A stretch of DNA of 64,000 bases from Candidatus Iainarchaeum sp. (lineage in GTDB: Archaea; Iainarchaeota; Iainarchaeia; Iainarchaeales; JAFGBZ01): the NCBI GenBank assembly GCA_043817715.1, contig JBDRGO010000007.1:15499-79498 (forward strand), read 5' to 3'. The translations under genes were made by a program, and so were the position numbers. Positions 3,403 to 60,150 of the stretch are shown in pieces. Below the pieces are notes generated by a model that was not told the origin of the DNA, ran no database searches, and saw nothing but the letters and a program-made list of their open reading frames with translations. The number at the start of each line of letters is the position of its first letter. The stretch's first letter is position 1.

Positions 3403-3915
3403 TCAATGCCTTGATTTAAATCTTTTAAAAAAAGGTTTTTCCTTAAGTATTGGCTTCCCTATATGTTGAAACAATTCAACAGCTAATTCATGAAACATTT
3501 GGTTAATCGCTGACTTTATTTCAACAGCATGTTCTTTAGAAAAGTGTTCAAGCGCCCCGTATGTTGCCTCACCAGCGCTTTTTGGATTCATTAACAATGC
3601 TTTTTTTACAGCAAAAAATGCGTTTTCTTTGTTACCCTCATGAGATTCAAAATGCTGATGTATTCTTTCAATTATTTCATTTTTTGCATTCTCAAAAATT
3701 AAGTTTTCAAGATAATCCATTAACATTGATCTTGCTTCTTCACTAGCCAGTTTTGGACGATTTAGCAATTCACGATACAACCTTACAACTACTTCTTTCT
3801 CAGTAATGCTATGCAGATTAGCTAATTCAAATATCTTTTCATTTGTTTCATGTTTAACTGTTTCAAGAGTTAATTTTTCTTCTGAGATTTTCCCGCCAAC
3901 CAATTTCATCACCAT
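3403..3915 (-). CDS. Hypothetical protein
   Basis: 170-aa ORF, helical, His-rich segments; no family recognised. Confidence 0.3.
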   Translation of the reverse strand: MVMKLVGGKISEEKLTLETVKHETNEKIFELANLHSITEKEVVVRLYRELLNRPKLASEEARSMLMDYLENLIFENAKNEIIERIHQHFESHEGNKENAFFAVKKALLMNPKSAGEATYGALEHFSKEHAVEIKSAINQMFHELAVELFQHIGKPILKEKPFFKRFKSRH

Positions 3916-14236: not shown

Positions 14237-14311
14237 TGGAGATAGGCGGATTTGAACCGCCGACCCTTGGTGTATAAGACCAATGCTCTAGCCAGGCTGA
14301 GCTATACCTCC
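14237..14311 (-). tRNA. tRNA-Ile (anticodon UAU)
   Basis: The reverse complement folds as a canonical cloverleaf: 7-bp acceptor stem, GGCGG-TTCAAAT-CCGCC T-arm, anticodon stem UUGGU/ACCAA with loop CUUAUAC. No encoded CCA. Confidence 0.8.
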
Positions 14312-29994: not shown

Positions 29995-30231
29995 ATGTTT
30001 GAATGTGAGGCAAAATTAAAAACATGGGGCAACAGCATTGGCGTTGTGCTTCCTAAAAAAGAGCTTGAAAAGGAAAATCTTTCTGCTGACAGCAAAGTCA
30101 GAGTGGTTGTTTTTCCTGCAAAAAAGCTTACTGTAGGGGATATTTTTGGAAAGCTTGAAAACTGGAAAAAGCCAGCCAGCAGAATAATGAAAGAAATTGA
30201 CGAGGAATTGGACAGCAAATTCTTTAAGTGA
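29995..30231 (+). CDS. AbrB/MazE-family antitoxin (SpoVT_AbrB fold)
   Basis: 78 aa; KTWGNSIGVVLPKK swapped-hairpin motif. Confidence 0.7.
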   Translation: MFECEAKLKTWGNSIGVVLPKKELEKENLSADSKVRVVVFPAKKLTVGDIFGKLENWKKPASRIMKEIDEELDSKFFK

Positions 30232-30235
30232 TAAA

Positions 30236-30598
30236 ATGAAATATTTTTTCGATACTTATGCGTTAGTCGAAATTGTTGAAAAAAACCCGAATTATGTAAA
30301 ATTCATAAAAGAAGAAATTGTTACAGGCATTCTTAACATTGGAGAATTTTATTATTCGCTCCTGAAAGATTACGATGAAAGCACTGCGCAAAACTGGCTG
30401 AAGATTTTTGGGCAGACAATAATTCCTTTAAGCACAGACACAGCCATCAATGCAATGAAATTCAAATTCCTAAACAGGAAAAAAAACTTTTCTTTTGTTG
30501 ACTGCTGCAGTTACATGCAAGCAAAAGAAAACAACTTGATTTTCTTAACCGGCGACAAGGAATTCAAAGGAATGCCTAATGTGGAATTCGTGAAATGA
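30236..30598 (+). CDS. vapC: PIN-domain toxin (VapC-like)
   Basis: Start at MKYFFDTYALVEIV 4 nt after the antitoxin stop. The leading D of the PIN acidic set is in that motif; the conserved C-terminal acidic residue lies in LTGDKEF. Confidence 0.75.
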   Translation: MKYFFDTYALVEIVEKNPNYVKFIKEEIVTGILNIGEFYYSLLKDYDESTAQNWLKIFGQTIIPLSTDTAINAMKFKFLNRKKNFSFVDCCSYMQAKENNLIFLTGDKEFKGMPNVEFVK

Positions 30599-30657: not shown

Positions 30658-30927
30658 TTGGTGATTTTTTTGGAAGCTGAAGTTGTTGTAAGAAAATGGG
30701 GCAATTCTCTTGGGTTGACTTTGCCTAAAAATCTTGTTGAAACCCAGAAAATAAGGGAAAATGACCGCATATCCATTCAGGTGGAGAAAAATAAGCTGTT
30801 AAGAGTAGGTGACATTTTCGGGCTTGCGAAAGGCTGGAAATTTGACACTCAAAAATTCAAAGACCAGGCAAGGAGGGAGGAACTTGAACGGGAAAGAAAA
30901 ATTTCTGGATTCTTACGCAATCATTGA
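30658..30927 (+). CDS. AbrB/MazE-family antitoxin, second copy
   Basis: 89 aa; RKWGNSLGLTLPKN; paralog of 29995-30231. Confidence 0.7.
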   Translation: MVIFLEAEVVVRKWGNSLGLTLPKNLVETQKIRENDRISIQVEKNKLLRVGDIFGLAKGWKFDTQKFKDQARREELERERKISGFLRNH

Positions 30928-31255
30928 AATAATCAAGGAAAACCAGAATTACAAACCATTTAAGGAAGCAGTTGCAGTAACAGGCAAAGCCAACTTGATT
31001 GAAGTCGCGTACAGTCTGCTTCAGGATTTCCAAAAAGAAACCGCATTAATTATATTGGGTTCCCTGAAAATCAAAACCCTTGAAATAGAGGACAACCAGA
31101 TAACAAAAATCGCTGTTTTCAAAAAAGAACACGCCAAAAAAAAATTCTCTTACATTGACTGCATAGGTTATATCCTGGCAAAAGAAAACGGAATAGCTTT
31201 CGTCACAGGCGACAAGGAATTTGAAGGAATGCCTAATGTGGAATTCGTGAAATGA
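30884..31255 (+). CDS. vapC: PIN-domain toxin (VapC-like), second copy
   Basis: Paralog of 30236-30598; the last 45 nt are identical. No in-frame ATG at the homologous position. Proposed TTG start at 30884 sits 5 nt after a GGAGGGAGG RBS and overlaps the antitoxin. Confidence 0.6.
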   Translation: MNGKEKFLDSYAIIEIIKENQNYKPFKEAVAVTGKANLIEVAYSLLQDFQKETALIILGSLKIKTLEIEDNQITKIAVFKKEHAKKKFSYIDCIGYILAKENGIAFVTGDKEFEGMPNVEFVK

Positions 31256-34285: not shown

Positions 34286-34552
34286 TTAATTCAATTTGTT
34301 CTGAACCGCGTCAATTTTTTCCCGCAGTTTTGCTTTTTTGTCCCATAAAGAACTTTTGGTTTTTTCACACAGGTCAATTCCTTCATGGGTTTCAGGAGTC
34401 ACTAAATTAAGATAAGTTATCTTTCTGCCTGCTGCCTCGTTTTTCTTTCTTAATGAAGCCAATTTTTTCTCCAATAATTTCCGTCTTATTCTGCTTTGCT
34501 TCCATCTGCTTTTTAAGTTCCTGAAAAAACCCATAACCAGCACTAAATTCAT
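34286..34552 (-). CDS. Hypothetical basic protein
   Basis: 88 aa; 4-nt overlap with upstream gene (operon). Confidence 0.3.
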   Translation of the reverse strand: MNLVLVMGFFRNLKSRWKQSRIRRKLLEKKLASLRKKNEAAGRKITYLNLVTPETHEGIDLCEKTKSSLWDKKAKLREKIDAVQNKLN

Positions 34553-34941
34553 TTCACGAATTTTCTGTCAACTTCAAGGATTAATACATCACATGCTGCT
34601 TTAATTGATTCCAATTGCTTGATGATTCTTTCTTTTTCTTTTTCAATATCCTGAATGTTTTCATATGGTTCAATTGCTTCCCTTAGCATTGATGAATCAA
34701 CATAAGAGTATGGATGCGAATCCATTTTTTTTGAAATTCTTTCAACCATTTTTCCCAGCCATAAATTCATCTGGTTCTTAACTGTTCCTTTAATTTGTTT
34801 TCCTTTAGTTAAATGGCTTCTCAGCATATTAACAACAGTTGCTTTAGGGAAAGGCAATTTATCTTCTGGTAAATCCTCTTCATCCTCTTCAATCATTTCC
34901 TGTGTTTCTACCTTTTCTTCCTCTAATTTTCCTTTAACCAT
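34549..34941 (-). CDS. Hypothetical protein, possible histone-fold (NF-YB/Dr1-like) domain
   Basis: Acidic N-terminus; LPFPKATVVNMLRSHL...VKNQMNLWLGKMVERISKKM...VDSSMLREAIE pattern resembles a histone-fold helix1-loop-helix2-loop-helix3. Confidence 0.3.
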   Translation of the reverse strand: MVKGKLEEEKVETQEMIEEDEEDLPEDKLPFPKATVVNMLRSHLTKGKQIKGTVKNQMNLWLGKMVERISKKMDSHPYSYVDSSMLREAIEPYENIQDIEKEKERIIKQLESIKAACDVLILEVDRKFVK

Positions 34942-35022: not shown

Positions 35023-35718
35023 GTGACAAAAATATGTCAGATGAATTCAAATAATTTAAGGTTTTTAGCCCCCATAACAGGGCTGTTTGTAGCAGTATTA
35101 ATTATTTCAAACATTGTTTCAACCAAAATCGTTGATTTGGGTTTGCTGGTTTTTGACGGGGGAACACTGTTATTTCCTTTAAGTTATATTTTTGGAGATA
35201 TTTTAACTGAAGTTTATGGTTACAAAAAATCAAGGCAGGTAATCTGGACAGGATTTATTGCATTAATTATGATGAGTGTTACTTTCTGGTTAATTGGACT
35301 GCTTCCAGCAGCAAGTGATTGGTTAAATCAGGAAGCATATGATTTGATTTTAGGAATAATGCCAAGAATTGTGTTAGGTTCAATTATTGCTTATTTTGCA
35401 GGAGAATTTTCCAACAGCTTTGTTTTGGCTAAAATGAAAATTTGGAGCAAAGGAAAACATTTATGGCAAAGAACAATCGGCTCAACTTTAATAGGAGAAG
35501 GAATTGATTCTGTTTTATTTGTTTTAATTGCTTTCCTTGGAGTACTGCCGAATGAATTGCTAATAATGGTTATGGTTTCAAATTATGTTTTCAAGGTTGG
35601 AATTGAAGTAATGTTAACCCCAATAACTTATTTGGTTGTTGGTTTCTTAAAGAAAAAAGAACAAGTAGATGTCTACGATTATAAAACTGATTTTAATCCA
35701 TTTAAAGCAGAATTTTAA
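35023..35718 (+). CDS. yhhQ: Queuosine-precursor transporter YhhQ (COG1738/DUF165)
   Basis: ISNIVSTKIV...FDGGTLLFPLSYIFGDILTEVYGYKKSRQVIWTGF is a strong match to the YhhQ family signature. Confidence 0.8.
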   Translation: MTKICQMNSNNLRFLAPITGLFVAVLIISNIVSTKIVDLGLLVFDGGTLLFPLSYIFGDILTEVYGYKKSRQVIWTGFIALIMMSVTFWLIGLLPAASDWLNQEAYDLILGIMPRIVLGSIIAYFAGEFSNSFVLAKMKIWSKGKHLWQRTIGSTLIGEGIDSVLFVLIAFLGVLPNELLIMVMVSNYVFKVGIEVMLTPITYLVVGFLKKKEQVDVYDYKTDFNPFKAEF

Positions 35719-35814
35719 TAATTTTCATAAAAAGCAGGGGTTTAATTCTTTTCCTTTCATTAATTTTTCTGCGGTTAATGAAGAAACTGACGATGACGCC
35801 GAGGTTATTCAACC

Positions 35815-36130
35815 AATGATGAGTGATGGGCAGGCTGAAACCGCAATTGATAATTAATTAAGCACTGTTGAGCGAAGTGAAACAGTGCAACGCCCGCCAG
35901 CCGGCGTGACGGCTGTGATGGGCAGGCTGAAACCGCATAACTGCCACTGTTAGTTGGCACCAGCGTACTTTTCGCTCTTGGGCTCAAGAGTGCCTTAATG
36001 TACGCTTGCGTACTCCGCCCGCTAGCCAACATGATGGCTGTAATGGGCAGGCTAAAACCACAAGCTAATTAAGCACTGCTGAAAGCAGTGCACACGTGCC
36101 AACGGAGTGAGCCGTTGAACTGAAACCACT
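35815..36130. ncRNA. GC-rich structured non-coding island with internal 48-nt repeats and perfect hairpins (candidate novel sRNA(s); strand unknown)
   Basis: About 58% GC against a roughly 30% background. Three copies of GTGATGGGCAGGCTGAAACC(G/A)CA at 35822, 35915 and 36040. Two perfect 8-bp hairpins (35861-35887 and 36073-36091). Nested helices GGCAC...GTGCC. Copy 1 has a C-box AUGAUGA with CUGA exactly 12 nt downstream. Confidence 0.35.
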
Positions 36131-36171
36131 ATATTTAAATATGTGTTATCACATAATAATTATGTGATTTT

Positions 36172-36414
36172 ATGCCTAATATTACTTTATCAGCAACTGA
36201 TGAAATGAAGGAAAGAATGGGTCGGCATCCTGAAGTGCGTTGGTCTAATGCAGTTCGCATAATTATTGAAAAGAAATTAAATGATTTTGAAAAGGCCGAA
36301 CGTTTAGCTAATAAAATCAATCTTTCAGAGAAAGATGTTGAATTTATTTCAGATAAAGTTGAGAAGGACATGGCTAAACATGCAAAGGAGCTTTTGAATG
36401 AGGGTTACAGTTGA
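36172..36414 (+). CDS. Ribbon-helix-helix (CopG-like) putative antitoxin
   Basis: 80 aa; N-terminal ITLSATDEMKERMGRHPEVRWSNAVRIII beta-strand-helix pattern of RHH; 17-nt overlap with downstream PIN gene. Confidence 0.55.
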   Translation: MPNITLSATDEMKERMGRHPEVRWSNAVRIIIEKKLNDFEKAERLANKINLSEKDVEFISDKVEKDMAKHAKELLNEGYS

Positions 36415-36808
36415 TGCAAATATTCTTTTTTCTGCTTTGATTAAAAAAGGACAAACAAGAAAAGTTTGGTTTAATCCGGAAATTGAATTATGTGCTCCAG
36501 AATTTCTTTTAAAAGAATTCTTAAAATACAGGGAATATCTTCAGAAAAAAGCCTCTGGAACTCCTAAAGAATTCCAGGATATTTCAGAAACTCTTTTTTC
36601 ACAGGTTTTTTTTATTCCCGATTCAGAACTAAAACCATTTTTGCCTGCCGCCGCTTTTCTTTCAAATGATGCAAAAGACTGGCTTTATCTGGCTTGTGCT
36701 TTAAAAGAAGACACAATTATTTGGAGCAATGACAAAGAATTCAAGAAACAGAAAAGAATTAAAATAAAATCGACTAAGGAAATGATTGAAGAAACAGGGA
36801 TGCTGTGA
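36398..36808 (+). CDS. PIN-family putative toxin (TIGR00305-like)
   Basis: MRVTVDANILFSALIKKGQTRKVW N-terminus matches the TIGR00305 PIN toxin signature (vvlDtNvlisall). Confidence 0.6.
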   Translation: MRVTVDANILFSALIKKGQTRKVWFNPEIELCAPEFLLKEFLKYREYLQKKASGTPKEFQDISETLFSQVFFIPDSELKPFLPAAAFLSNDAKDWLYLACALKEDTIIWSNDKEFKKQKRIKIKSTKEMIEETGML

Positions 36809-36974
36809 TTAGTTTACTGGCAGGCTGAAACCTGCTTGATTTTCCCTTAAATTCCGTCAAAAACCAGAAAATTCAAGGTTTTAATGGGTTTTTAGCCTGT
36901 TTTGTTTAAAAACCTTTTTCTTGCTTCATTTAAACTATATTGTGTTTATTTGACCAATAAAGGAGGAATTTAAT

Positions 36975-37151
36975 ATGGCAGATATGTTAGTAGTAAAATC
37001 AAAAGTAGCAGAATATATTAAAGGAAAAGGAATGATGATGGCATCAGATTCACCGGAAGCATTAAGCGGAATGGTTGCAATGTTTTTAGATAAATCAATC
37101 GCAAGATGCAAAGAAAACGGAAGAAAAACCGTTAAACCATACGACTTCTAA
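36975..37151 (+). CDS. Small conserved protein (58 aa), DUF1931/histone-fold-like
   Basis: Below the ORF-track cutoff. Strong RBS AAAGGAGG 8 nt upstream. The stop is followed by a perfect hairpin ACGACTTCTAATTAGAAGTCGT plus T8. Sequence MADMLVVKSKVAEYIKGKG...NGRKTVKPYDF resembles the small archaeal DUF1931 family. Confidence 0.4.
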   Translation: MADMLVVKSKVAEYIKGKGMMMASDSPEALSGMVAMFLDKSIARCKENGRKTVKPYDF

Positions 37152-37819: not shown

Positions 37820-38338
37820 TCAAACAGTTACTCTTTTTATTTCAAATAAATTAACATCATTTTCCCTGTCAACCACTGCAATTAATGCATTTGCTTTAAT
37901 GTTTTGAGTTAAGCGGATTAATCTTGATAATTCAGGAAAATTCATTTTCATGTCTTCTGAATACACATTTAAGGTCCACTGTGTATGGGCTTCCCCTGCT
38001 TTTTTTCCTTTAGGGTAAACCCTGAAATCTGAACCGAATTTCAGGCCTGATTTTAAAACATATCCTGCCTGCTTTAATGATTCAAAAACAATTAATTTTG
38101 AATAAAATTTTTTATCAATTGAAAGACCTTTTTTAAGCAAATCATTTTCAGTTAATTCCCTGTCCCTTAAATCAGTTACCGCAATTTTTTCTTTTCTCAT
38201 TAAGTAAACCGCTTCAAACAAATCCAGAATCAACTGGTTTCCTTTCCTTTCACCAAAGCCCTTGCTTTGCAATTGGTCCGCGGTTTTCTTTTCTTCAACA
38301 ATGACCTTGTTTTCAGCTAAATAAATTCTTGAATCCAT
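37820..38338 (-). CDS. endA: tRNA-splicing endonuclease subunit
   Basis: 172 aa; C-terminal catalytic block KFGSDFRVYPKGKKAGEAHTQWTLNV (Tyr/His/Lys triad spacing of EndA). Confidence 0.75.
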   Translation of the reverse strand: MDSRIYLAENKVIVEEKKTADQLQSKGFGERKGNQLILDLFEAVYLMRKEKIAVTDLRDRELTENDLLKKGLSIDKKFYSKLIVFESLKQAGYVLKSGLKFGSDFRVYPKGKKAGEAHTQWTLNVYSEDMKMNFPELSRLIRLTQNIKANALIAVVDRENDVNLFEIKRVTV

Positions 38339-38893: not shown

Positions 38894-38945
38894 AAATTAA
38901 TTGAATTCAACAAAGTATTTTAAACACCTATAACTAACATAATTT

Positions 38946-38994
38946 AAGAACCTTAAAGGTTCTTAAAGCTTTAAATTTGCTGAAAAGCAAATTT
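38946..38994. promoter_or_regulatory. Two adjacent perfect palindromes in a divergent promoter region
   Basis: AAGAACC-TTAAA-GGTTCTT (38946-38964) and AAATTTGC-TGAAAA-GCAAATTT (38973-38994) between the divergent genes 38405-38893 (minus strand) and trpS. Confidence 0.3.
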
Positions 38995-39014
38995 AACTTA
39001 ATTCAGGTGATTTA

Positions 39015-40124
39015 ATGGCTGAATTCATTGTTAATCCATGGGAAGTAAAAGGAAATATTGATTATGATAAATTAATCAAGGAATTCGGATTACAGCGAAT
39101 AAAAGAGCTTCCAAAGGAATTCAAGGAATTCTTATTGTTCAGAAGAGGAATCATTTATGCCCACAGGGATTTTGAACGCATTACAAACGCATTCAAAAAC
39201 AAAAAGCCTTTTGCAATGATGACAGGATTAATGCCTTCAGGAAAATTCCATTTCGGGCATAAAATGGTTGCAGACCAAATTATTTTTTACCAGAATTTAG
39301 GCGCAAAAATTTATGTTGCTGTTGCAGACATTGAAGCATATAATACAAGAAATCCTGACATGAAGGAATTAAAGGAAATTGCATTAAAAGAATATTTAAC
39401 AAATTATGTAGCATTAGGGCTTGATTTGAATAAATGCGATTTTTATTTTCAGTCAGAAAGGTCAAAAGATGCGAAAAAAAACAAGGCATATTACCGCTTG
39501 GAAAACATGCTTGCAAGGCATGCAACATTCAATGAATTCAAGGCAGTTTATGGAGAAATCACGCCAGGCAAAATGATTTCTTCCTTATTGCAGGCATCTG
39601 ATATGCTTCATCCCCAGCTTAAAGAATTCGAGGGCGCAATTCCCACAGTGGTTCCTGTTGGCATTGACCAGGACCCGCATATTAGATTGGCAAGGGACAT
39701 CAGCCAAAAAATTCAGGAATTTAAATTCATTCAGTTAAGTTCAACTTACCATAAATTCATGCCTGCATTAAAGGGCGAAAAAATGAGTTCATCTGATTCA
39801 ACTTCATTTATTGCTTTAACTGATTTGCCTGAAGAGGCGGCAAATAAAATCAAAAAATATGCTTTTTCCGGCGGACAGCCGACAATTGAAGAGCACAAGA
39901 AAAAAGGCGGCAACCCTGATATTGATGTAAGTTATCAACTGCTTTTGTTTGGAATGGAGCCGAATGACAAAAAACTTCAGGAAATTTATGATGAATATAA
40001 ATCAGGAAAAATGCTTTCAGGAGAGCTGAAATTAATTGCGATTGAAAAAATGGCGCAGTTCCTGAAAAAACACCAGAAAGAAAGAATTAAGGCAAAACAG
40101 AAAGTAGAAAAATTTATTCATTAA
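39015..40124 (+). CDS. trpS: Tryptophanyl-tRNA synthetase (archaeal/eukaryotic type)
   Basis: MMTGLMPSGKFHFGH (HIGH region), VPVGIDQDPHIRLARD and KMSSSD (KMSKS variant); 369 aa. Confidence 0.85.
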   Translation: MAEFIVNPWEVKGNIDYDKLIKEFGLQRIKELPKEFKEFLLFRRGIIYAHRDFERITNAFKNKKPFAMMTGLMPSGKFHFGHKMVADQIIFYQNLGAKIYVAVADIEAYNTRNPDMKELKEIALKEYLTNYVALGLDLNKCDFYFQSERSKDAKKNKAYYRLENMLARHATFNEFKAVYGEITPGKMISSLLQASDMLHPQLKEFEGAIPTVVPVGIDQDPHIRLARDISQKIQEFKFIQLSSTYHKFMPALKGEKMSSSDSTSFIALTDLPEEAANKIKKYAFSGGQPTIEEHKKKGGNPDIDVSYQLLLFGMEPNDKKLQEIYDEYKSGKMLSGELKLIAIEKMAQFLKKHQKERIKAKQKVEKFIH

Positions 40125-40135
40125 CAAGTTATAAA

Positions 40136-41041
40136 GTGAAAGTTATGGATTATGGATTGATTTTAAAGAATGCATATACTTTATGGTTAAAGGATAAAAA
40201 AAGCCTTTTTTATACTTTAATTTATTTTTTAGCAGGACTTTTTTTTGTAGCAATAAGTTTTGGAATTGTGTGGCTTTTCTTTCAAGATGCATGGATTCAA
40301 ATGATGGCTGCATCAACTTATTCAACTACAGTAACTCCTGATCCAAGTATGCTTACAAGTCTTTTAACTTCAATGCTTGTTCTTATTCCAGTTTCATTAC
40401 TTCAAATACTTGTACTTTATTTCATAGGCATTTTAATGAGATTAAGAGCGCTTGAAGTTTTAGGATTTAAAACAGTGCCAATTACTTTAAGCAAATTTTT
40501 TAAACTGATTTTACTTTGGGTTTGGACAACAATTGCAGCAGTTATTTCATGGCATAAGAAAACTTTTTTGTATTTATTTATTGGGTTAATGGTTTTAGCA
40601 ATTATAACCTTAGCATTATTTGTTTTAGGTCAATGGCTTCCGGGAATTATTCTAACAGTTATATTGCTTCCGCTTACAATAATTTATTCTGTAATAATAA
40701 TTTACAATTCAATGAGATTAAGTCTTAGCAGTGCAATAATTCTTCAAAAAGACCAAGGAGTATTTGATACTGCAAAAGAAGCATGGGATTTAGCTGAAGG
40801 CAAGGTTCTTGAAATATTAATTGCAGTTATGGTAATACTTATTCCAATACTTATTGTTGGAATGATTGTAGGACTTATTGCAGGAGTTTTAAGTGCATTA
40901 ATGAATACTGCCTTTCTTTCAACTGCAATACAGCAAATAGTTCAAATTATTATTAGTCCATTGACAGCAATAATTTTTGCTTTTGGTTTTATTACAGTTT
41001 ATTCAGAAGTACTGAAATCAAAAGCATTAAAACCAGTTTAA
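40136..41041 (+). CDS. Integral membrane protein
   Basis: 301 aa, about 7 TM helices. Confidence 0.4.
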   Translation: MKVMDYGLILKNAYTLWLKDKKSLFYTLIYFLAGLFFVAISFGIVWLFFQDAWIQMMAASTYSTTVTPDPSMLTSLLTSMLVLIPVSLLQILVLYFIGILMRLRALEVLGFKTVPITLSKFFKLILLWVWTTIAAVISWHKKTFLYLFIGLMVLAIITLALFVLGQWLPGIILTVILLPLTIIYSVIIIYNSMRLSLSSAIILQKDQGVFDTAKEAWDLAEGKVLEILIAVMVILIPILIVGMIVGLIAGVLSALMNTAFLSTAIQQIVQIIISPLTAIIFAFGFITVYSEVLKSKALKPV

Positions 41042-41060
41042 TCAAATTAAGCAAAAATTA

Positions 41061-41516
41061 TTAATTCAATTTAGGCAAGAATCCAAAGAATCCCTTGCTG
41101 TTTTCTTTTTTTTCCTCTTCTTTTTCTTCCTGCAGTTCAATTAATTCAATTAACTGCAGTTCAATTCCTTCTTTTTTTAATTCTTTTATCAGGCCTTTCT
41201 GCTCCTCTGAATCGGTTTTAATTAAAAAAACTTTTTTTACATTTGAAAGCTTTACTGTGTTGACAAGCTTGTGGTGCAGTTCGCCCCATTCAAGTATGTC
41301 TTCCGCCTTTGCCTTGTTTTCTTTTGCTGAAACAAGTATTTGAGAGATTATTTCATTTGCCTGCGCAATATCAGAAGCAGTCAATCCAAAATCAGTTTTT
41401 TTTTCAGATGCATCAATTACTGCAAGAACAACAAGTTCCCTGCATTGCGGAAAAACTTTTGAAAGGAATTCACGGGAAGATTCTTTTTTTGTCAGAATAG
41501 GAATTAATCCCTTCAT
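41061..41516 (-). CDS. Hypothetical protein (possibly universal-stress-protein-like)
   Basis: 151 aa; ELVVLAVIDASE resembles the USP N-terminal strand; weak. Confidence 0.3.
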   Translation of the reverse strand: MKGLIPILTKKESSREFLSKVFPQCRELVVLAVIDASEKKTDFGLTASDIAQANEIISQILVSAKENKAKAEDILEWGELHHKLVNTVKLSNVKKVFLIKTDSEEQKGLIKELKKEGIELQLIELIELQEEKEEEKKENSKGFFGFLPKLN

Positions 41517-41539
41517 CTCAATTCACTTAATAATTCAAT

Positions 41540-42349
41540 TCACTTAATTAACCTGAATAAATCCTTTTTTTTCTCCAAAATTGTTCCTTCTTCTTTAAGG
41601 AATTCCATCGCCACCCTAATTAGGTTTTTATCAGTATTTAATCCTTTTGAAATTTCATCAAGAGTGGCTTTATCTATTGAATCAAGGAAATCAGTTATTT
41701 TCACTGAAACAGGCCTAAACAATTCATTTGCAATAAAGCAGGAACTTCCGTCAAAGCATTTCATTCCTTTAAGAGAGCCGTCCTTTAAATCTTTTTCATT
41801 TAACTGGGAAAATTTTTTTGCAGACATATCATCTGAAAAAATAACAAACTTGCTGTTTAATTCATTTGAAAAAGAACTGCATTCATCCTGCCCTTTTTTT
41901 GCTTCAGTTCTTTTTATTCCTGATTTTTCCTCTTTTTGCCTTTCTTTTTCTTTTGGCTCGGTTTTCCTTATTTCTTTTCCGCGAACTTCATTTCTTAATT
42001 TATAAATTGATTTTTTGTATTTGTCGCTTAACTTGAATTCAAGGACTTTTTCTTCCGCAATTAATTTCTTTAATGCAATTAATTCATTTTCATTTAATTT
42101 TGATTCAAATACCCCAAAAACACGTTCCTTCAAGGGAAGAAATTCAATTAATTCAAGGACCTTTTCTTCCGCAACCTGTTCAGGGGACTGCTTTTCTTTT
42201 CCTTTTTCCTCTTTTGCCTTCAGAACCCATATGCCTTGGGTTGCATTGAATAATTCAAATTCAGTTCCTTCAATCAATTCATTATCCACTGCCTCTTTTT
42301 CTGAAAAAACCAATGAATAAAACGCACCCTGTTTCTTTAATCTAGGCAT
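41540..42349 (-). CDS. Hypothetical protein with C-terminal winged-helix-like segment
   Basis: 269 aa; KE-rich linker; C-terminal LDEISKGLNTDKNLIRVAMEFLKEEGTI. Confidence 0.3.
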   Translation of the reverse strand: MPRLKKQGAFYSLVFSEKEAVDNELIEGTEFELFNATQGIWVLKAKEEKGKEKQSPEQVAEEKVLELIEFLPLKERVFGVFESKLNENELIALKKLIAEEKVLEFKLSDKYKKSIYKLRNEVRGKEIRKTEPKEKERQKEEKSGIKRTEAKKGQDECSSFSNELNSKFVIFSDDMSAKKFSQLNEKDLKDGSLKGMKCFDGSSCFIANELFRPVSVKITDFLDSIDKATLDEISKGLNTDKNLIRVAMEFLKEEGTILEKKKDLFRLIK

Positions 42350-42514
42350 AATTCAATTAAACCCCCAAATAATGAAAATAAAGAAAAGAAATGAATTTAA
42401 GTTAACTGTTTGGGTTAAATCAGGTTAAATCAGCAAAAACAATTAAAAAAATTAATTCAAAAAATAATTCAGCAATGAAATTCCAGCAAAAAACAATTTC
42501 ATCAATAATTCAAA

Positions 42515-42961
42515 TTAAGTTATTTCAGCAAAAACAATTTCATCAATTAATTCAGGCAATTCCTTTAATTCAAGCACTAAAACCATTGTTTGTTTTTCTG
42601 TAATAGTGCATATTTTATCAAAATCCTTCAAAGAACTATCAATTAATAATCTTGCATCATAAACACTGATTGGAGGAACTAATCTATCAGCATAACCAGT
42701 TATTTCTTCTACTTCTTGTCCTTCAATAAAATCAGAAAAAATAGGAACCGCCTGCCTGACTTTTTCTTCATTTAATTTTTTTTTCCAAGGAAAAACACAA
42801 ATCCAAACATTCTCTGATTCATCCAAAAAAACAGTAGTTTTAAAGCATTGATCTAAACTTAAACCAGTTAATTTACTCAATACAGAAACTTTCCTTATTT
42901 CTTCCCCGGAAACAATTACTTTTGAATTCAGTTCATGGACTTTAATGAAATCCTCTAACAT
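42515..42961 (-). CDS. Hypothetical protein
   Basis: 148-aa ORF. Confidence 0.3.
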   Translation of the reverse strand: MLEDFIKVHELNSKVIVSGEEIRKVSVLSKLTGLSLDQCFKTTVFLDESENVWICVFPWKKKLNEEKVRQAVPIFSDFIEGQEVEEITGYADRLVPPISVYDARLLIDSSLKDFDKICTITEKQTMVLVLELKELPELIDEIVFAEIT

Positions 42962-43080
42962 GAAATCACTTCAATTAAAATAAAAACAAAAAAGAATAAA
43001 AAGAAATCAATTGAAGGGAAAAAGAAAAAAAAGGAAAAAGGAAAGGAAAAACTAACTAATGAAAAAAAAGAAACTTTTTT

Positions 43081-46000
43081 CTAATTAGGATAAATTATTG
43101 GTCTTTTTTTAAAGTATTCAGTAATAGCAGTTTGCAACTCTCTTTCAGTTAACTGAATTGGCACATATTTGGTTCGCATAGAAGCCAAAATCAACTCAGC
43201 AAACTCTTTCATAATTTTTTCGTCCTGTATAAAAAGACCTTTACTATAAGCTTTTTTTACAAATTCTGAAGAAAAAGAAGAAACCCTTACATTCCCATAA
43301 ACCCAAAATGAAATTATTTCAGTCATTAATGTATCTGCATCAATCATTTTTCCGTTTATTTCAACAATTTTGCCTTCACTCATTAAAGGCGGCATAAACT
43401 TTGATGGATTAGCTTGGTATAAATCTAGCTTTGTGAAAGAATAAGTAAAATAATCCTTTTCATAACCTGTTTGAAATTTTTTAAGATATTTAATTAAACT
43501 TCTGTTTTTTGAAAACAAATTAATTAATTCAGCCCTTTCAGAAGTGCTTAAAGCAAACCAACGAATATGGCTTAATTCATGTGCTGAAATATTAATGCTA
43601 TTTGACACTAAATCTTTTCCAGATCTAAACAAAGATAGCTTATTCCAAGAAAAAGCTGAATCCAAAGAAATTGCAATGCTATCAAAACGACCTCCTTTAA
43701 TGCTTTGGAAAGTAAAACCGCCAATAGAAGGTTTAGATCTGCAAACATAAAAATAAATCTTGCCTGCAAAAGGATCATTTAACTCTGAAGTCAAAACAGG
43801 CACTAATCCTTCACTACTTAGTCCTCTGAAAACATTTTGTTTGCCACTCCTAGCCATACTCTGTTTCCAAAAAGAACCCAGTCTTTGCAGTTGATCAGGA
43901 AGAATTGCCGGCAAAGTTCTACGTAAACTCAAAGAGCCAGGAAATTTCAAATACAATTTCTTTGAACCAAACACAACCCCTTCTTCTTTCAGGATTTGAA
44001 TGCTTTCTGACAAAAATAAAGTTTCAACTTCATCAATTGAACAGGCTTCTAAAGTACTTCCTTTACAAACCACTCCCTTTGTTTCATTAATTACTGCTTT
44101 CTGGAATTGCAGTTCTTTAATCAGGATTGCTGCTTCTTCTGGTGATTCTTTTGAAACAAATTCAATCAAATCCTCCAATGAATCAAGTGTTTTACTTATT
44201 TTTGAAAGTTGTTTTGGAGTAACTGAATTCAAATTAATCAAAAAAGCGTCATCTAATTCATTAAATGAATAAATCAAATATTTTTCAGAACCGGCAACCA
44301 CTGCATCTTTTTCAACTCCTCCGACAACAATTTTTTTTGCTGTAGATTCAGCAAAATCAGTTAAAATTTCTTTTGGTACACGAGAATAAGTTTTGCTTAA
44401 ATTCCTTAAAGCAGATATTTCATACCTGAACCAGTTTGTTAAAAGATCTTTTCTTGCTTCAGACAAAGCAACCCTAAAATTAAAAACTGAAGAAGGAGTA
44501 ATTTTTGTATAAATAACTGTGGCAGTATTAGGAAAACGCTTGAATAACACTGCCTTAAATGCATTTTTTTTATCAATTGAAAGCTTAATTAATCTTCCAG
44601 TTCCCCTTAAACTAAATTCAATAAAAGGATGTTTTTCAAGAAATCTTCCAATATTTGAAAGAGCTCTTACTGAAGCTTGCGCGTATTTGCCTGAAACAAA
44701 TTCAGCTAACCTGGTTCCCAAAGAAGTTTTAATAGCACTTTTTCCGACAACTCCTACAAGAGAAAACACTCCTCTAAAAGCAAATTCTCCAATAAACCAA
44801 TACCTTACATCAAAAAATGCTTCCCATCTATGAGAACTTAATTCAACAAATTCAAGAACATGAAGCTCTGATTTAACCTTAAGAGATAAACTTGAAACTT
44901 CAGGTAAAATAATTTCATTTTCTTCATTAAATAATTCAATTTTTTTCTCTAACTCTAAAAGCTTTGCTTTTGCAACCGGGTAAACCGATTCAGAAATATA
45001 ATCCTTGGCTTCAGCGAAATCCAATTCAATTAATTCCAATTCATTTGGAGCTCGATTATGTTCATTAATTATTTCCTGAATAGAATTAAATTTCTTTAAA
45101 GTAGAATTATCAGCAGTTTTATTATTTTGAACAATAGAAGAACTTTGCAAAAAATACCTTGCTGAACCAATATAACCTTTTTCTTCAATATCTTCTTCAG
45201 TTATATCTCCTTGATTCAACAAATTTTCTAAATCATCATCCAATAAATGAACCAATATATTAAATTGCCTTTGCTGTTCATGAATAATTTCTTCTCTATT
45301 CAAAATTTCAGTTACTTCTTCCTGGTTTTCCTCTTCACGAATAATCCATTTAAGCCCATAATAGCCATTATAAAAAAGCTTTGCAAAACTAGTTCTGTCA
45401 TCCAACTGCTCATCCAATTCACCTAAAGCTCCTTTAAATAATTCATTTTCTGTTTGAATTTCTTTTTTCGCAACCTCTAACAAAATCTGATTCAAATGCA
45501 TCCTCTTATTAATTTCATTGAATTGATTAATTTCTTCTTCAGAATCAAATAAATTTGAAATTAAAAAAAGTTTTTCATTAAAAGCATACTCTGCCTCAAT
45601 AAAAGAATCAATATTCTTCCAAGAATATCGGTTCTCTAAATAATCATATCTTGTTTTCAAAAAATTGTATTTCAATTCAAATAAATCATTCATTTCACCT
45701 TCTTCACCAAAAATATTTTCCAAATCCATGAATTCACTTAAATGCATTTCCTTTAATTTCTCTGATTCCAATAATTCTTCTTCCTGAAATCTCTCGGCAA
45801 TCTTTTTATTTTCCTCTAATTTTTTCGGCAAAGTTTCCCTTGGAGAAACAAACGCCAAAGAAATTAATCCACTTGCTTCAAACAAATCAATATGCTTAAG
45901 CCTTGAATCAAAAACCAAATCAAACTTATTTAAAAAATCAAGAACAACAAATTCATCTAATTCATTTAATTCAGTAATCAAATCCAAAGTTCTTTTCTTT

Positions 46001-47034
46001 TCCCTGTGCAATTCAGAGTATACCATGTTTGCTTCACAAGAATCAAAATAAAACGAATCAAGAAAATGAATTCTATTAAAAGAAGGCATTAAATTCTTAG
46101 AACGCAATTCACCAAAATTAGAATTAAAATAATTCAAATACTGCCTGCAATTCCCTTTTGAATTAATCTGAATTTCATCGCTTAAAAGCAGCCAAACATA
46201 AGAATCAACACCAGAATTATGCTCAATAAAAGCATTTTTGTTCTCCAAAGATTTTTCAAGCAAATCCAAATACTTTTCATTCAAATCCTCTAATCTATCC
46301 AACCTGCAGTAAAGCAATGCATTGCTGAATTCCTTTTCAGTTAAGTCCTCTCTTCCATAACTTAACTCAATTTCTTTTAAACAAAAATCATTATGAATTA
46401 CAACCTCAATTCCGTCAGAAATCAAATCATCAATCATTTTCCCCTCTTCATTAATCAACCGAATATCAGCCAAACGCAGGTTAAGGGAATACTCTTCATT
46501 CAATAATTCATCAGAATAATCAGAAATATCAACACTAAAAGTAATTGTCGGCTGAACAAAAGAACTATTTGGATTAAATTCAGGATTATTAGGGTCATTA
46601 AAACCACCACTAAAATCCTCAACACTAAAAGAAACAAAATTCTTTCCAACACCATCCAAAACAAGTCGTTCATGAATTGAATAAGAAGGCAACCACTTAC
46701 TCAAAGGCAAAGTGAAAATAACTTCATCTTCAACGCTTTCATTTGAAACAAATAAATCAATCCTTTCAGGCAAATCAGGATACAAATTAATTGAAGCAAA
46801 ATCAGATTCAGTAATAGGGTCATCTTCAGCCAACCCAACTAAATCAAAAACCCCTCCAACAATGCCTTCAATAAATTCAGCTCCTTCCTTTAAAGGCAAA
46901 CCAAAAGGATCCTCAGGAGCTGCAAAAACAGAAATAAACAAAAAACAAAAGAAAAAAAACAAAAAAAACTTTTTATACATGAAAAATAAAAGAAAAAGGA
47001 AAATAAATACTTTACTAAAAGCATTTATTTCCAA
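43081..47034 (-). CDS. Giant (1317 aa) secreted or membrane-associated hypothetical protein
   Basis: N-terminal, strongly hydrophobic F/L-rich signal or anchor (FIFLFLLFFMYKKFFLFFFFCFLFISVFAAP); remainder acidic and helical with no recognised domain. Confidence 0.5.
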   Translation of the reverse strand: MEINAFSKVFIFLFLLFFMYKKFFLFFFFCFLFISVFAAPEDPFGLPLKEGAEFIEGIVGGVFDLVGLAEDDPITESDFASINLYPDLPERIDLFVSNESVEDEVIFTLPLSKWLPSYSIHERLVLDGVGKNFVSFSVEDFSGGFNDPNNPEFNPNSSFVQPTITFSVDISDYSDELLNEEYSLNLRLADIRLINEEGKMIDDLISDGIEVVIHNDFCLKEIELSYGREDLTEKEFSNALLYCRLDRLEDLNEKYLDLLEKSLENKNAFIEHNSGVDSYVWLLLSDEIQINSKGNCRQYLNYFNSNFGELRSKNLMPSFNRIHFLDSFYFDSCEANMVYSELHREKKRTLDLITELNELDEFVVLDFLNKFDLVFDSRLKHIDLFEASGLISLAFVSPRETLPKKLEENKKIAERFQEEELLESEKLKEMHLSEFMDLENIFGEEGEMNDLFELKYNFLKTRYDYLENRYSWKNIDSFIEAEYAFNEKLFLISNLFDSEEEINQFNEINKRMHLNQILLEVAKKEIQTENELFKGALGELDEQLDDRTSFAKLFYNGYYGLKWIIREEENQEEVTEILNREEIIHEQQRQFNILVHLLDDDLENLLNQGDITEEDIEEKGYIGSARYFLQSSSIVQNNKTADNSTLKKFNSIQEIINEHNRAPNELELIELDFAEAKDYISESVYPVAKAKLLELEKKIELFNEENEIILPEVSSLSLKVKSELHVLEFVELSSHRWEAFFDVRYWFIGEFAFRGVFSLVGVVGKSAIKTSLGTRLAEFVSGKYAQASVRALSNIGRFLEKHPFIEFSLRGTGRLIKLSIDKKNAFKAVLFKRFPNTATVIYTKITPSSVFNFRVALSEARKDLLTNWFRYEISALRNLSKTYSRVPKEILTDFAESTAKKIVVGGVEKDAVVAGSEKYLIYSFNELDDAFLINLNSVTPKQLSKISKTLDSLEDLIEFVSKESPEEAAILIKELQFQKAVINETKGVVCKGSTLEACSIDEVETLFLSESIQILKEEGVVFGSKKLYLKFPGSLSLRRTLPAILPDQLQRLGSFWKQSMARSGKQNVFRGLSSEGLVPVLTSELNDPFAGKIYFYVCRSKPSIGGFTFQSIKGGRFDSIAISLDSAFSWNKLSLFRSGKDLVSNSINISAHELSHIRWFALSTSERAELINLFSKNRSLIKYLKKFQTGYEKDYFTYSFTKLDLYQANPSKFMPPLMSEGKIVEINGKMIDADTLMTEIISFWVYGNVRVSSFSSEFVKKAYSKGLFIQDEKIMKEFAELILASMRTKYVPIQLTERELQTAITEYFKKRPIIYPN

Positions 47035-47039
47035 TGAAA

Positions 47040-48269
47040 TTACTTTCCGTCTAAAGGTACTTCTTCTCCAGTTGATTCTGGTTCTTTTAATTTACCTGCA
47101 TCTGCTTTTAATGCATCAGCTTTATCGGTTTTTTCCCAGGTAAAATCAGGATCATTCCTTCCAAAGTGGCCATATGCAGCGGTTTTTTGATAAATTGGTC
47201 TCAATAAATCCAAATGCTTAACTATTTCAGCTGGTTTTAAACCAAAGTGTTTTCTTACAAGTTCCTCAATTTTTTCTTCTGCAACTCTGTTTGTTCCAAA
47301 AGAATGAACCATTACACTTACTGGATCAGCAACACCAATTGCATAAGCTAATTGCACTTCACATTTATCCGCTAAACCCGCAGCAACAACATTCTTCGCA
47401 ATATATCTTGCCATATAAGTTGCACTTCTATCAACCTTTGAAGGGTCTTTTCCTGAAAAGCATCCTCCTCCATGAGAACCATGCCCTCCATAAGTATCAA
47501 CAATTATTTTCCTTCCAGTTAAACCTGAATCAGCTACTGGCCCGCCAACAACAAATCTTCCAGTTGGATTAACAAAGAATTTTGTTTTATCATCAATCCA
47601 ATCACCACAAACTGGTTTAATTACTTTTTCAATTACATCTTTTCGTAATTCCTCTAAAGAAATTTTATCTGAATGATGCGCTGAAACAACAATTGCATCT
47701 GCTCTAACTGGTTTTCCTCCTTGATACTCAATTGTTACCTGTGATTTTCCATCAGGACGCAAATAATCCAATTCTTTTTTCTTTCGAACATCAGTTAATT
47801 TCATTGTTAATTTATGCGCTAACATAATTGGCAAAGGCATTAATTCAGGAGTTTCATTTGAAGCATAACCAAACATCATTCCCTGATCTCCTGCCCCCTG
47901 TTCTTCTCCTGCTTTTCCTTCAGCACCTAAAGCATTAACTCCTTGAGCAATATCAGGGCTTTGTTCTGACAAAGCAACAATAACACCGCAGCCATCAGCA
48001 TCAAAACCAAATTCAGGGTCATCATAACCAATTCCACGAATTGTTTCACGAACAACTTTCTGAATATCAATATATGTTGAAGTAGTTACTTCACCAGTAA
48101 CAAAAATAATTCCTGTTTTAGTAACACATTCAATTCCAGACCTTGCTTTAGGATCATCCTTAAGCATTGCATCTAAAAGAGCGTCACTTACTTGGTCGCA
48201 AACTTTGTCTGGGTGACCAGGGGTTACACTCTCACTAGTAAAATAATATTTTCCATTTTTTTTAACCAT
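47040..48269 (-). CDS. metK: S-adenosylmethionine synthetase (bacterial/eukaryotic MetK type)
   Basis: [28 protein letters not shown]-terminus and whole-length collinearity with MetK; extra C-terminal tail of about 30 aa. Confidence 0.9.
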
Positions 48270-59813: not shown

Positions 59814-60049
59814 ACCCTAAAAAATAAATGAATCACTAAAGGAAAGAAGAAAGGAATATAAATAGTTTTGCTTGAACAAAAAAAGCCCGCTGAATAAAGC
59901 CAAAAGAACTGAATTTAAAAGCATTCGGCATCAAAAAAGCAAAAAAAATTTCTCTGCTTTTGTTGGCAAAGGAAAGAAATTTTTTCCAAAAAAAAAGTTA
60001 TGTGTAAAATCTGAATAAAAGTATTTAAAGAAGTTCTGCACCAATATAA

Positions 60050-60150
60050 GAGTTGGGAGTTAAGGAGACAAGATACACTGCTTTCCCGCTGAATCGGCGG
60101 CGGTCTTCGTGGGGGAGGCTGAAGGCAGATCCCTGCTTGTCTCCCAATAC
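60050..60150. ncRNA. GC-rich ~100-nt element closed by a long terminal helix (candidate structured ncRNA)
   Basis: TTGGGAG..GGAGACAAG (60053-60072) pairs with CTTGTCTCCCAA (60136-60147). Interior is about 65% GC (CCCGCTGAATCGGCGGCGGTCTTCGTGGGGGAGGCTGAAGGCAGATCCCTG). Intergenic. Confidence 0.3.

Follow-up and report, generated by a model that had tools for sequence, protein, structure and literature searches.

The Hgc RNAs, which Klein, Misulovin and Eddy reportedly obtained in 2002 from screens of guanine-plus-cytosine (GC) content in Methanocaldococcus and Pyrococcus, provide a point of reference for the element analysed here, an island at positions 35806-36136 of a 64-kb stretch of a metagenome-assembled genome (MAG) that carries the NCBI label Candidatus Diapherotrites (the whole stretch is called the window, and all coordinates are window positions unless stated otherwise). 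The island shares with the Hgc RNAs a sharp GC enrichment, a hairpin-rich intergenic setting free of open reading frames (ORFs) in an AT-rich archaeon and a TATA-like box of its own; unlike them, it is internally repeated and is so far known from just two MAGs, and it matches no Rfam family, Hgc included. A further parallel is offered by titrating small RNAs (sRNAs) of the CsrB/RsmZ type, which also present several copies of one short hairpin on a stand-alone RNA and vary in copy number between relatives, but the resemblance is one of architecture only: the island has no GGA loops, and there is no CsrA homolog. We propose, with a probability of roughly 0.45, that the island is a noncoding RNA locus of a kind not described before, made of several hairpins, duplicated internally and read from the plus strand, and that a toxin-antitoxin (TA) pair lies inside its array.

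With a window average of 32.8% GC, the island stands out as the highest peak of the whole window, reaching 0.61 in windows of 100 nucleotides (nt). An earlier inspection, made from the letters and ORF translations alone (the sequence-only reading), had singled out this peak; the figure of 58% GC that it gave for 35860-36130 comes down to 54.2%. The ORF listing of the window contains no credible ORF within the island. A scan of the whole window against Rfam 15 at gathering scores returned only a tRNA, and no rRNA gene, signal recognition particle (SRP) RNA or RNase P RNA. On the island itself (fragments of 386 nt and 1301 nt), lowering the threshold to E-values up to 10 brought up no SRP, RNase P, H/ACA, ribozyme or riboswitch model; this permissive search gave only scattered matches below 26 bits, plus weak C/D models.

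Self-comparison resolved the island into a degenerate tandem array built from a 23-nt repeat, X, and from hairpin-forming segments that we call Y, Z, W and M (Table 1). Three copies of a repeat unit and a fourth, partial copy had been described as bracketing the TA genes, and this description holds: X begins at 35823, 35915, 36040 and 36813. Its 14-mer core, GGCAGGCTGAAACC, occurs four times with at most two mismatches against 0.19 occurrences expected, a count reached in 0 of 100 shuffles. A search for further copies yielded one inverted partial copy at 36888-36899 and no other copy of the core in the window; what did emerge was additional internal structure, namely W, a truncated X (x4) and a degenerate Z. 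Longer repeats run across the modules, one of 47 nt that joins Z and X (at 35891 and 36016, 83% identity) and one of 34 nt that spans the Y hairpins (at 35855 and 36066), while the spacings of the X copies are irregular (92, 125 and 773 nt). Alignment of the internal copies identifies W as a paralog of the Z hairpin and places the degenerate Z ahead of X4, within the last codons of the PIN gene. The island thus laid out reads Z0-X1-Y1, Z1-X2-M, hp1'-Z2-X3-Y2-W-x4, the TA pair, and finally the degenerate Z with X4.

The copies differ from one another in a way that preserves base pairing. Every difference between Z1-X2 and Z2-X3 is a transition, as is the single stem difference between Y1 and Y2, and all stem differences among the internal paralogs keep pairing: CAGCCG/CGGCUG becomes UAGCCA/UGGCUG, and a compensated change from U-A to C-G turns GCACUGUU/AACAGUGC of Y1 into GCACUGCU/AGCAGUGC of Y2. 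The helices of Y1, Y2, Z1, Z2 and M form with pairing probabilities of 0.93-1.0, and the two 8-bp stem hairpins noticed earlier are real, with probabilities of at least 0.97. The middle segment M contains a remnant of the 5' half of Y (CCACUGUU), the motif UGGCACC and the palindrome GUACGC-UU-GCGUAC, and its hairpin AGCGUAC/GUACGCU encloses CGCUCUUG-GGCU-CAAGAGUG. Both the minimum-free-energy (MFE) structure and the partition function arrange these helices in two multi-branch domains, the first closed by UGCGGUU (35770-35776) with AACCGCA of X2 and the second by 35938-35960 with 36096-36117. The first closing helix, P1, is present in the MFE structure and has a pairing probability of 0.65 with X2. 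Against shuffled sequence the fold has a z-score of -3.7 on the plus strand.

A screen for GC islands among the loci fetched from other genomes yielded one relative, at positions 3699-3858 of locus L062 (GCA_016932875.1), a related Diapherotrites MAG. This 160-nt island, with a GC content of 0.63 in a locus of 29.5% GC, lies between a gene for a 149-amino-acid (aa) protein and metK and consists of five perfect hairpins, all Watson-Crick and without G-U pairs. Their order is hp1, a Z-type hairpin, a single-stranded linker, a Y hairpin, a W hairpin and a Z hairpin. It has no X repeat, no TA genes nearby and no C or D boxes; like the window island it matches no Rfam family, and SRP and RNase P models are absent from it even at E-values up to 10. 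The two islands have in common a stretch, AGCCG(A/G)CGUGACGGCUG, in which window Z1 and L062:3837-3853 are identical at 16 of 17 nt, and both carry an 8-bp hairpin with a GNA triloop as well as a CAAC.G/C.GUUGAA hairpin. Shorter shared motifs are GUACUCCGC, CCGCCA, UGGCACC, CGCUCUU, UGGGCA and an AUUUA tail, of which UGGCACC, CGCUCUU and GUACUCCGC are also found in the window's M segment. When Y2 is aligned to the Y hairpin of L062, four compensated pairs are seen, and W has an ortholog at L062:3818-3835 with one more. Compensatory changes are thus present in a second genome, as would be expected of a stand-alone structured sRNA, on the basis of one relative.

The same correspondence emerged from alignment and model searches. 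A collinear local alignment of the two islands scores 35.5 on the plus strand and 20.75 on the minus strand, a score reached by 2 of 300 shuffles. We built two covariance models, R1 from the Y-W-Z part of L062 only and R2 from the whole L062 element. Over 189 kb, R1 gave exactly two matches, both in the island: 36072-36137 (23.7 bits) and 35861-35920 (13 bits). An unfiltered search of both strands of the window with R2 placed 35995-36137 on the plus strand at the top, full-length and at 24.5 bits (a rough E-value of 1.1e-5), followed by 35878-35968 on the minus strand at 18.2 bits; everything outside the island scored 11 bits or less. An 18-nt hairpin, CARCNG-N6-CNGYUG, recurs six times, as Z1, Z2 and W of the window and as W, Z and hp2 of L062. 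Across these copies 97.2% of cells are paired, both sides change in three of the six pairs, positions A2, C4, G15, U17 and G18 are invariant, and the covariation score was reached by 0 of 500 shuffles. From these comparisons we conclude that the two islands are probably homologous. The L062 form, at about 150 nt, approximates the basic unit of the family. X aligns with the unpaired linker that joins hp2 to Y in L062; on this comparison, X reads as a window-specific, homogenised elaboration rather than a hallmark of the family.

Several features favour the plus strand, without being decisive. Its loops are GNRA-like (AC-GUGA, GC-GUGA, AC-GCGA, A-GUGA-G) or GNA triloops, the alignment and covariance-model scores are higher on it, and the G-U pairs of M and Z2 fit it. 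P1 has a TATA-like box 26 nt ahead of it, and archaeal TATA boxes are centred about 26 nt upstream of the transcription start; this box and the AUUUA tail shared with L062 are sequence-level hints of a separate start and end of transcription. At the far end of the array, X4 could form a long hairpin with the inverted partial X which, together with UUUUGUUU, may originally have terminated the array, although its fold z-score is only -1.5, weak support for such a hairpin.

Another structured RNA was among the identities first suggested for the region, and it is the one of them that finds support, in the compensatory changes within the window and in L062, the absence of an ORF and of a known family, and a plausible promoter. 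The analysis shows the repeats, the hairpins with their covariation, one homolog and no match to a known family; transcription, its strand and a protein-binding role we infer from sequence, as follows. The locus would begin at about 35770 and end at 36137, its last unit lying apart at about 36790-36907. A unit of about 150 nt, present as a single copy in L062, would have given rise in the window, by tandem duplication, to three or four partial copies; the linker between its hairpins would have become the conserved 23-nt X repeat, and between the last two units would sit the VapB-like/PIN_2 pair under a promoter and operator of its own. The array is built on the 18-nt hairpin, with invariant outer stem bases and GNRA-like hexaloops. 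The transcript may resemble beads on a string, displaying several copies of one protein-binding hairpin as a scaffold or titrating RNA, and its 5' end may close on X via a kink-turn (K-turn)-like C/D motif. As a feature the island is real and ordinary in kind, a GC-rich noncoding RNA island in an AT-rich archaeon that falls outside the known families. The wider proposal, of a new modular RNA family in Diapherotrites-like DPANN archaea that grows by tandem expansion of 18-nt GNRA-like hairpins, is a doubtful one; such an RNA might serve as a multivalent platform for an RNA-binding protein or be processed into small hairpin RNAs, and its locus would also be a TA insertion site.

A number of observations weigh against an RNA locus read from the plus strand. 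Support for homology is moderate and comes from a single relative. In unfiltered searches R1 also gave a spurious 21 bits at an AT-rich hairpin region (38945-39014), and the L062 element itself, in reverse, scored 28.6 bits with R2, so that generic hairpin spacing accounts for part of these scores. Folding does not settle the strand, as the minus-strand z-score of -3.6 nearly equals that of the plus strand, and the G-U evidence is mixed: M and Z2 fit the plus strand, while W, at its seventh pair, has a U-G wobble on the minus strand only. The clearest oligo-U terminator of L062 is likewise on the minus strand, and conserved long-range helices are absent. Within L062, hp2 (CAGCGG-UUUCGU-CCGCUG, 3744-3761) with its flanks matches window Z1 at 17 of 22 positions when inverted and at 11 of 22 in direct orientation; its minus-strand loop ACGAAA fits the AC-GNRA pattern, and hp2 resembles an inverted module within the L062 element. 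Such an inverted match is more in keeping with a repeat at the DNA level than with a single RNA. Finally, the elements occupy non-syntenic positions in the two genomes. Although 39015-48269 shows partial synteny with L062:72-5082 (the tryptophanyl-tRNA synthetase gene TrpRS, a few minus-strand genes and metK), the site that holds the L062 element, between the 149-aa gene and metK, is occupied in the window by a 1317-aa ORF (43081-47034), and the window element lies 3 kb upstream of TrpRS.

These points lead to the main alternative, in which the island is a cluster of GC-rich palindromes comparable to repetitive extragenic palindromes and bacterial interspersed mosaic elements (REP/BIME) or to miniature inverted-repeat transposable elements (MITEs), which would spread through intergenic DNA downstream of genes, becoming duplicated and inverted, and act at the RNA level only by stabilising the 3' ends of neighbouring mRNAs or terminating them. 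Bacterial REP/BIME are themselves short GC-rich palindromes with compensated stems, in tandem or inverted clusters downstream of genes and at variable positions, and the likeness extends to the change of position between the two genomes, to the element starting no more than about 50 nt from a neighbouring stop codon in each of them (that of Vut_1 at 35718, and that of metK at 3856 in L062), to the tandem module duplication in the window and the inverted hp2 in L062, to the purely Watson-Crick stems of L062, which lack G-U pairs, and to the embedding of a TA module, typical mobilome cargo, in the array. REP/BIME, however, recur tens to hundreds of times in a genome and are tied to REP-associated tyrosine transposases (RAYTs), whereas here we found one locus per roughly 64 kb sampled, in an archaeal host: the window has a single one, and about 200 kb of further DPANN loci yielded none. 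The window has no terminal inverted repeats or target-site duplications except the 8-nt CTGAAACC, the sole direct repeat around the TA pair; its modules all point in one orientation, and GNRA-like loops are kept on one strand. We consider a DNA repeat of this kind unlikely, if the most serious of the competing explanations.

The remaining explanations are less probable still. The sequence-only reading had suggested a cluster of C/D-box-like sRNAs, and its key observation, a canonical AUGAUGA box followed by CUGA exactly 12 nt downstream in copy 1 (35816-35822 and 35835-35838), is correct. Archaeal C/D-box sRNAs resemble the 5' end of the island in their terminal stem, C-like box and CUGA D box in K-turn geometry: the 7-bp stem UGCGGUU/AACCGCA abuts AAUGAAGA (35777-35784), which lies opposite CUGA, so that UGCGGUU-A-AUGAAGA...CUGA-AACCGCA at 35770-35845 could adopt a K-turn-like geometry with one C-box mismatch, and the ends of several Rfam C/D models agree on 35770-35846 and 35783-35840. 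This geometry is absent at X2 and X3, where no C box stands at the distance of a guide, and X3 has CUAA in place of CUGA; 12 nt after either C candidate stands CGCC or UCAA rather than a D' box; the putative RNA would measure 76 nt against the usual 50-60 nt; the models score 10-17 bits (best 16.6; E-values 0.08-8) against gathering thresholds of 35-50; and L062 lacks the boxes altogether. The D guide GUGAUGGGCAGG of a single such sRNA at 35770-35845 would pair, with two mismatches, to the universal 16S region 1398-1409, which is within chance. A C/D cluster is not supported for most of the island, and at the 5' end, where only the first 76 nt are C/D-like, it is unproven; even at least one C/D sRNA there we regard as improbable. 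The same reading had also proposed the ends of a small mobile cassette carrying the VapB-like and PIN_2 genes; the X repeats might equally be its recombination sites. X-type copies do bracket these genes (x4 at 36120-36129 and X4 at 36813-36835, both with CTGAAACC), but three more X copies lie upstream, only 69-102 nt apart; a blastn search found no X in phage or plasmid records, pattern scans gave only chance-level or unrelated matches, and the window has no X elsewhere apart from the inverted partial copy. Pfam identified no integrase domain among about 20 ORFs near the island and no recombinase was seen in the scanned neighbouring ORFs; by eye there are no attC-type core sites, and X fits neither integron core (RYYYAAC...GTTRRRY) on either strand. 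The L062 element has no TA genes and the two other PIN modules of the window have no X; cassette ends are therefore very improbable, and the TA pair is better read as lying inside a pre-existing repeat array. A size of about 330-370 nt and a high GC content are typical of housekeeping RNAs in AT-rich archaea, and neither SRP RNA nor RNase P RNA is found elsewhere in the window, which could point to a highly divergent DPANN version of one of them. The earlier reading had seen no signature of either, in agreement with Rfam scans of both islands at E-values up to 10; neither the helix-8 GNAR/AGCA motif nor the CR-I sequence GGAAAGUCC was seen, the L062 version has only about 150 nt, and degenerate tandem duplication is unlike a single-copy essential RNA, all of which leaves this identity with very little probability. 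Little more can be said for the idea that the island serves the neighbouring TA system in cis, as a leader or antitoxin-like RNA. Type III ToxI is likewise an RNA repeat array that directly precedes the gene of an RNase toxin, and here one X copy also stands after the toxin gene; ToxI, however, has regular 36-nt units co-transcribed with toxN, whereas the island has irregular repeats and a toxin-less relative in L062 that is not beside TA genes, the system already has a protein antitoxin, and a TATA box and a palindromic operator separate the island from the leaderless-looking antitoxin start. Such a role is about as improbable as that of a housekeeping RNA.

Table 1. Features of the island and its surroundings in the window; percentages give identity of the X copies, and functional names of promoter and box elements are readings of the sequence.
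Feature	Position	Strand	Basis or remark
Vut_1/YhhQ-type transporter gene	35023-35718	+	Pfam, E 8e-54; upstream neighbour of the island
TATA-like box TTTAATTC	35741-35748	+	sequence reading; would imply a start near 35770
P1 closing helix, 5' strand UGCGGUU	35770-35776	+	pairs with AACCGCA of X1 (35839-35845) or X2 (35931-35937)
C-like box AUGAAGA	35778-35784	+	sequence reading
C-like box ACGAUGA	35790-35796	+	sequence reading
C-like box AUGAUGA	35816-35822	+	sequence reading
X1, 23-nt repeat GTGATGGGCAGGCTGAAACCGCA	35823-35845	+	self-comparison, 100%
D-like box CUGA	35835-35838	+	sequence reading
Y1 hairpin GCACUGUU/AACAGUGC, 11-nt loop	35862-35888	+	pairing probability 0.97
Z1 hairpin, core CAGCCG-GCGUGA-CGGCUG (35898-35915), extended by GCCCG/UGGGC	35892-35923	+	pairing probability 0.99-1.0
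X2	35915-35937	+	identical to X1, 100%
Middle segment M	35938-36013	+	between X2 and Z2; fold and sequence reading
Unit B: hp1-like, Z2, linker X3, Y2, W, AUUUA tail	35995-36137	+	full-length collinear with the L062 element
Z2 hairpin, core UAGCCA-ACAUGA-UGGCUG (36023-36040)	36017-36048	+	relative to Z1, G-C to A-U and C-G to U-G
X3 GTAATGGGCAGGCTAAAACCACA	36040-36062	+	87%; three G-to-A changes relative to X1 and X2
Y2 hairpin GCACUGCU-GAA-AGCAGUGC	36073-36091	+	pairing probability 0.98
W hairpin CAACGG-AGUGAG-CCGUUG	36100-36117	+	paralog of Z
x4, truncated X CUGAAACCAC	36120-36129	+	just 3' of W
TATA box of the TA pair TTTAAATA	36134-36141	+	read from sequence; putative function
Perfect 10-1-10 palindrome ATCACATAAT-A-ATTATGTGAT	36148-36168	+	between TATA box and antitoxin ATG at 36172
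VapB-like antitoxin ORF, 80 aa	36172-36414	+	NCBIfam VapB, 24 bits against a cutoff of 60, sub-threshold
PIN_2 toxin ORF, 136 aa	36398-36808	+	PF10130, E 8e-24
X4	36813-36835	+	70%
X4 hairpin with UUUUGUUU (36900-36907)	36813-36907	+	X4 core pairs with inverted partial X 36886-36899
EndA	37820-38338	-	solid Pfam assignment

The genes around the island are in part those first named. The PIN_2 toxin and EndA assignments are solid, while the antitoxin proposed as a ribbon-helix-helix protein matches only VapB, and below threshold. The last codons and the stop codon of the PIN_2 ORF fall within the degenerate Z-like sequence ACAG-GGAUG-CUGUGAU. The VapB-like/PIN_2 pair probably regulates its own expression through the palindrome ahead of the antitoxin gene, which would be its operator. 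Since a consensus TATA box and this palindrome stand between the island and the antitoxin ATG, the TA pair would have a promoter and operator of its own, which argues that the island is not merely a TA leader. Two more ORFs with PIN domains lie about 5 kb upstream on the plus strand (30197-30598 and 30809-31255), in a region rich in TA-like modules; no X-like repeats were found near them. Two small ORFs flank the locus, at 34549-34941 on the minus strand and 36975-37151 on the plus strand; by eye they have a histone-fold or DUF1931-type look, and neither has a significant Pfam or NCBIfam match.

Several other identities were tried for the island and rejected. The proximity of EndA, from which bulge-helix-bulge (BHB) precursors had been conjectured, carries no weight: a loose BHB scan gave 439 trivial matches, none coinciding with stable helices. 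ARAGORN found no split or intron-containing tRNA. An array of clustered regularly interspaced short palindromic repeats (CRISPR) is at odds with the irregular spacing and with the homology of the would-be spacers Y1 and Y2 to each other. Judged by eye, the template and variable repeats of a diversity-generating retroelement (DGR) do not fit, because the differences include T-to-C changes, and origin recognition boxes (ORB) of a replication origin do not suit a GC-rich region. Likewise by eye, the core C3 and A9 positions of a hammerhead ribozyme are unmet, and K-turns or K-loops inside X or Z fail on tandem G.A pairs that are not conserved in Z2. Tested as H/ACA RNAs, the Z hairpins offer no more than a 1x3 internal loop, a tail GCA follows in two of three copies, and Rfam gave no H/ACA match.

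Searches for further relatives covered genomes, viral contigs and metagenomes. A 19-mer from X had 28 single matches in 185,579 species genomes, all bacterial and about the number expected by chance. In viral contigs an X 17-mer had six single matches, at chance level, and a 17-mer from the Z hairpin had nine, all in high-GC phage contigs. A pattern of two X copies retrieved 23 metagenomic loci, all of them unrelated tandem repeats (Sel1-repeat genes and satellites of 32, 60 and 91 nt). Of the latter, five JGI contigs (Ga03079xx; L046, L051, L056, L060 and L061) carry 91-nt tandem repeats in 4-6 copies that contain CAGGCTGAAACC, and L048 and L057 have a repeat of 60 nt that closes with an inverted copy; neither is related to the island. 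No ORFs called by mistake over homologous RNAs came up with a six-frame pseudo-protein query, blastn of X against phages and plasmids gave nothing meaningful, a literature search for the motif turned up only primers for the polymerase chain reaction, and a loose scan for the 18-nt hairpin was uninformative, with about as many matches as in shuffled sequence. The nearest genomes in the databases are 75-81% identical in the Vut_1 and TrpRS proteins and share little gene order; synteny walks along homologs of Vut_1 (L029-L032) and TrpRS (L063-L073) met no shared gene order and no related island, L062 being the sole exception. One Logan DPANN contig (L069:6800-7090, and the same in L070) has an intergenic GC island that resembles two tRNA genes, the first with an apparent long insert between D-arm-like and T-arm-like segments.

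Two further features of the window concern its RNA genes. Its sole tRNA is a tRNA-Ile with the anticodon UAU (14237-14311, minus strand; 68.9 bits); this anticodon is unusual in archaea, with reports mainly from nano- and korarchaeal lineages. A second ORF-free, GC-rich island lies at 60045-60150 on the plus strand (0.56 GC), with TATTTAAA ahead of it at about 60022. Its fold is a long hairpin in which a 9-bp lower stem leads through a 5x7 internal loop to a branched top (z-score -3.65), and it contains GGGAGGCUGAAGGCAG, which resembles the X core; Rfam gave no match, and it may be an H/ACA-like or other sRNA.

The case shows how a C box, a D box and a 12-nt spacing inside a repeat can mislead. 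Were the island a REP-like repeat after all, it would be a rare archaeal case of REP-type palindrome clusters. Hardly any regulatory RNAs have been described from DPANN archaea, whose genomes are tiny; a conserved, stand-alone, GC-rich RNA that matches none of the 4227 Rfam families would open DPANN RNA biology, and the repeated hairpin would offer a concrete bait for its binding protein.

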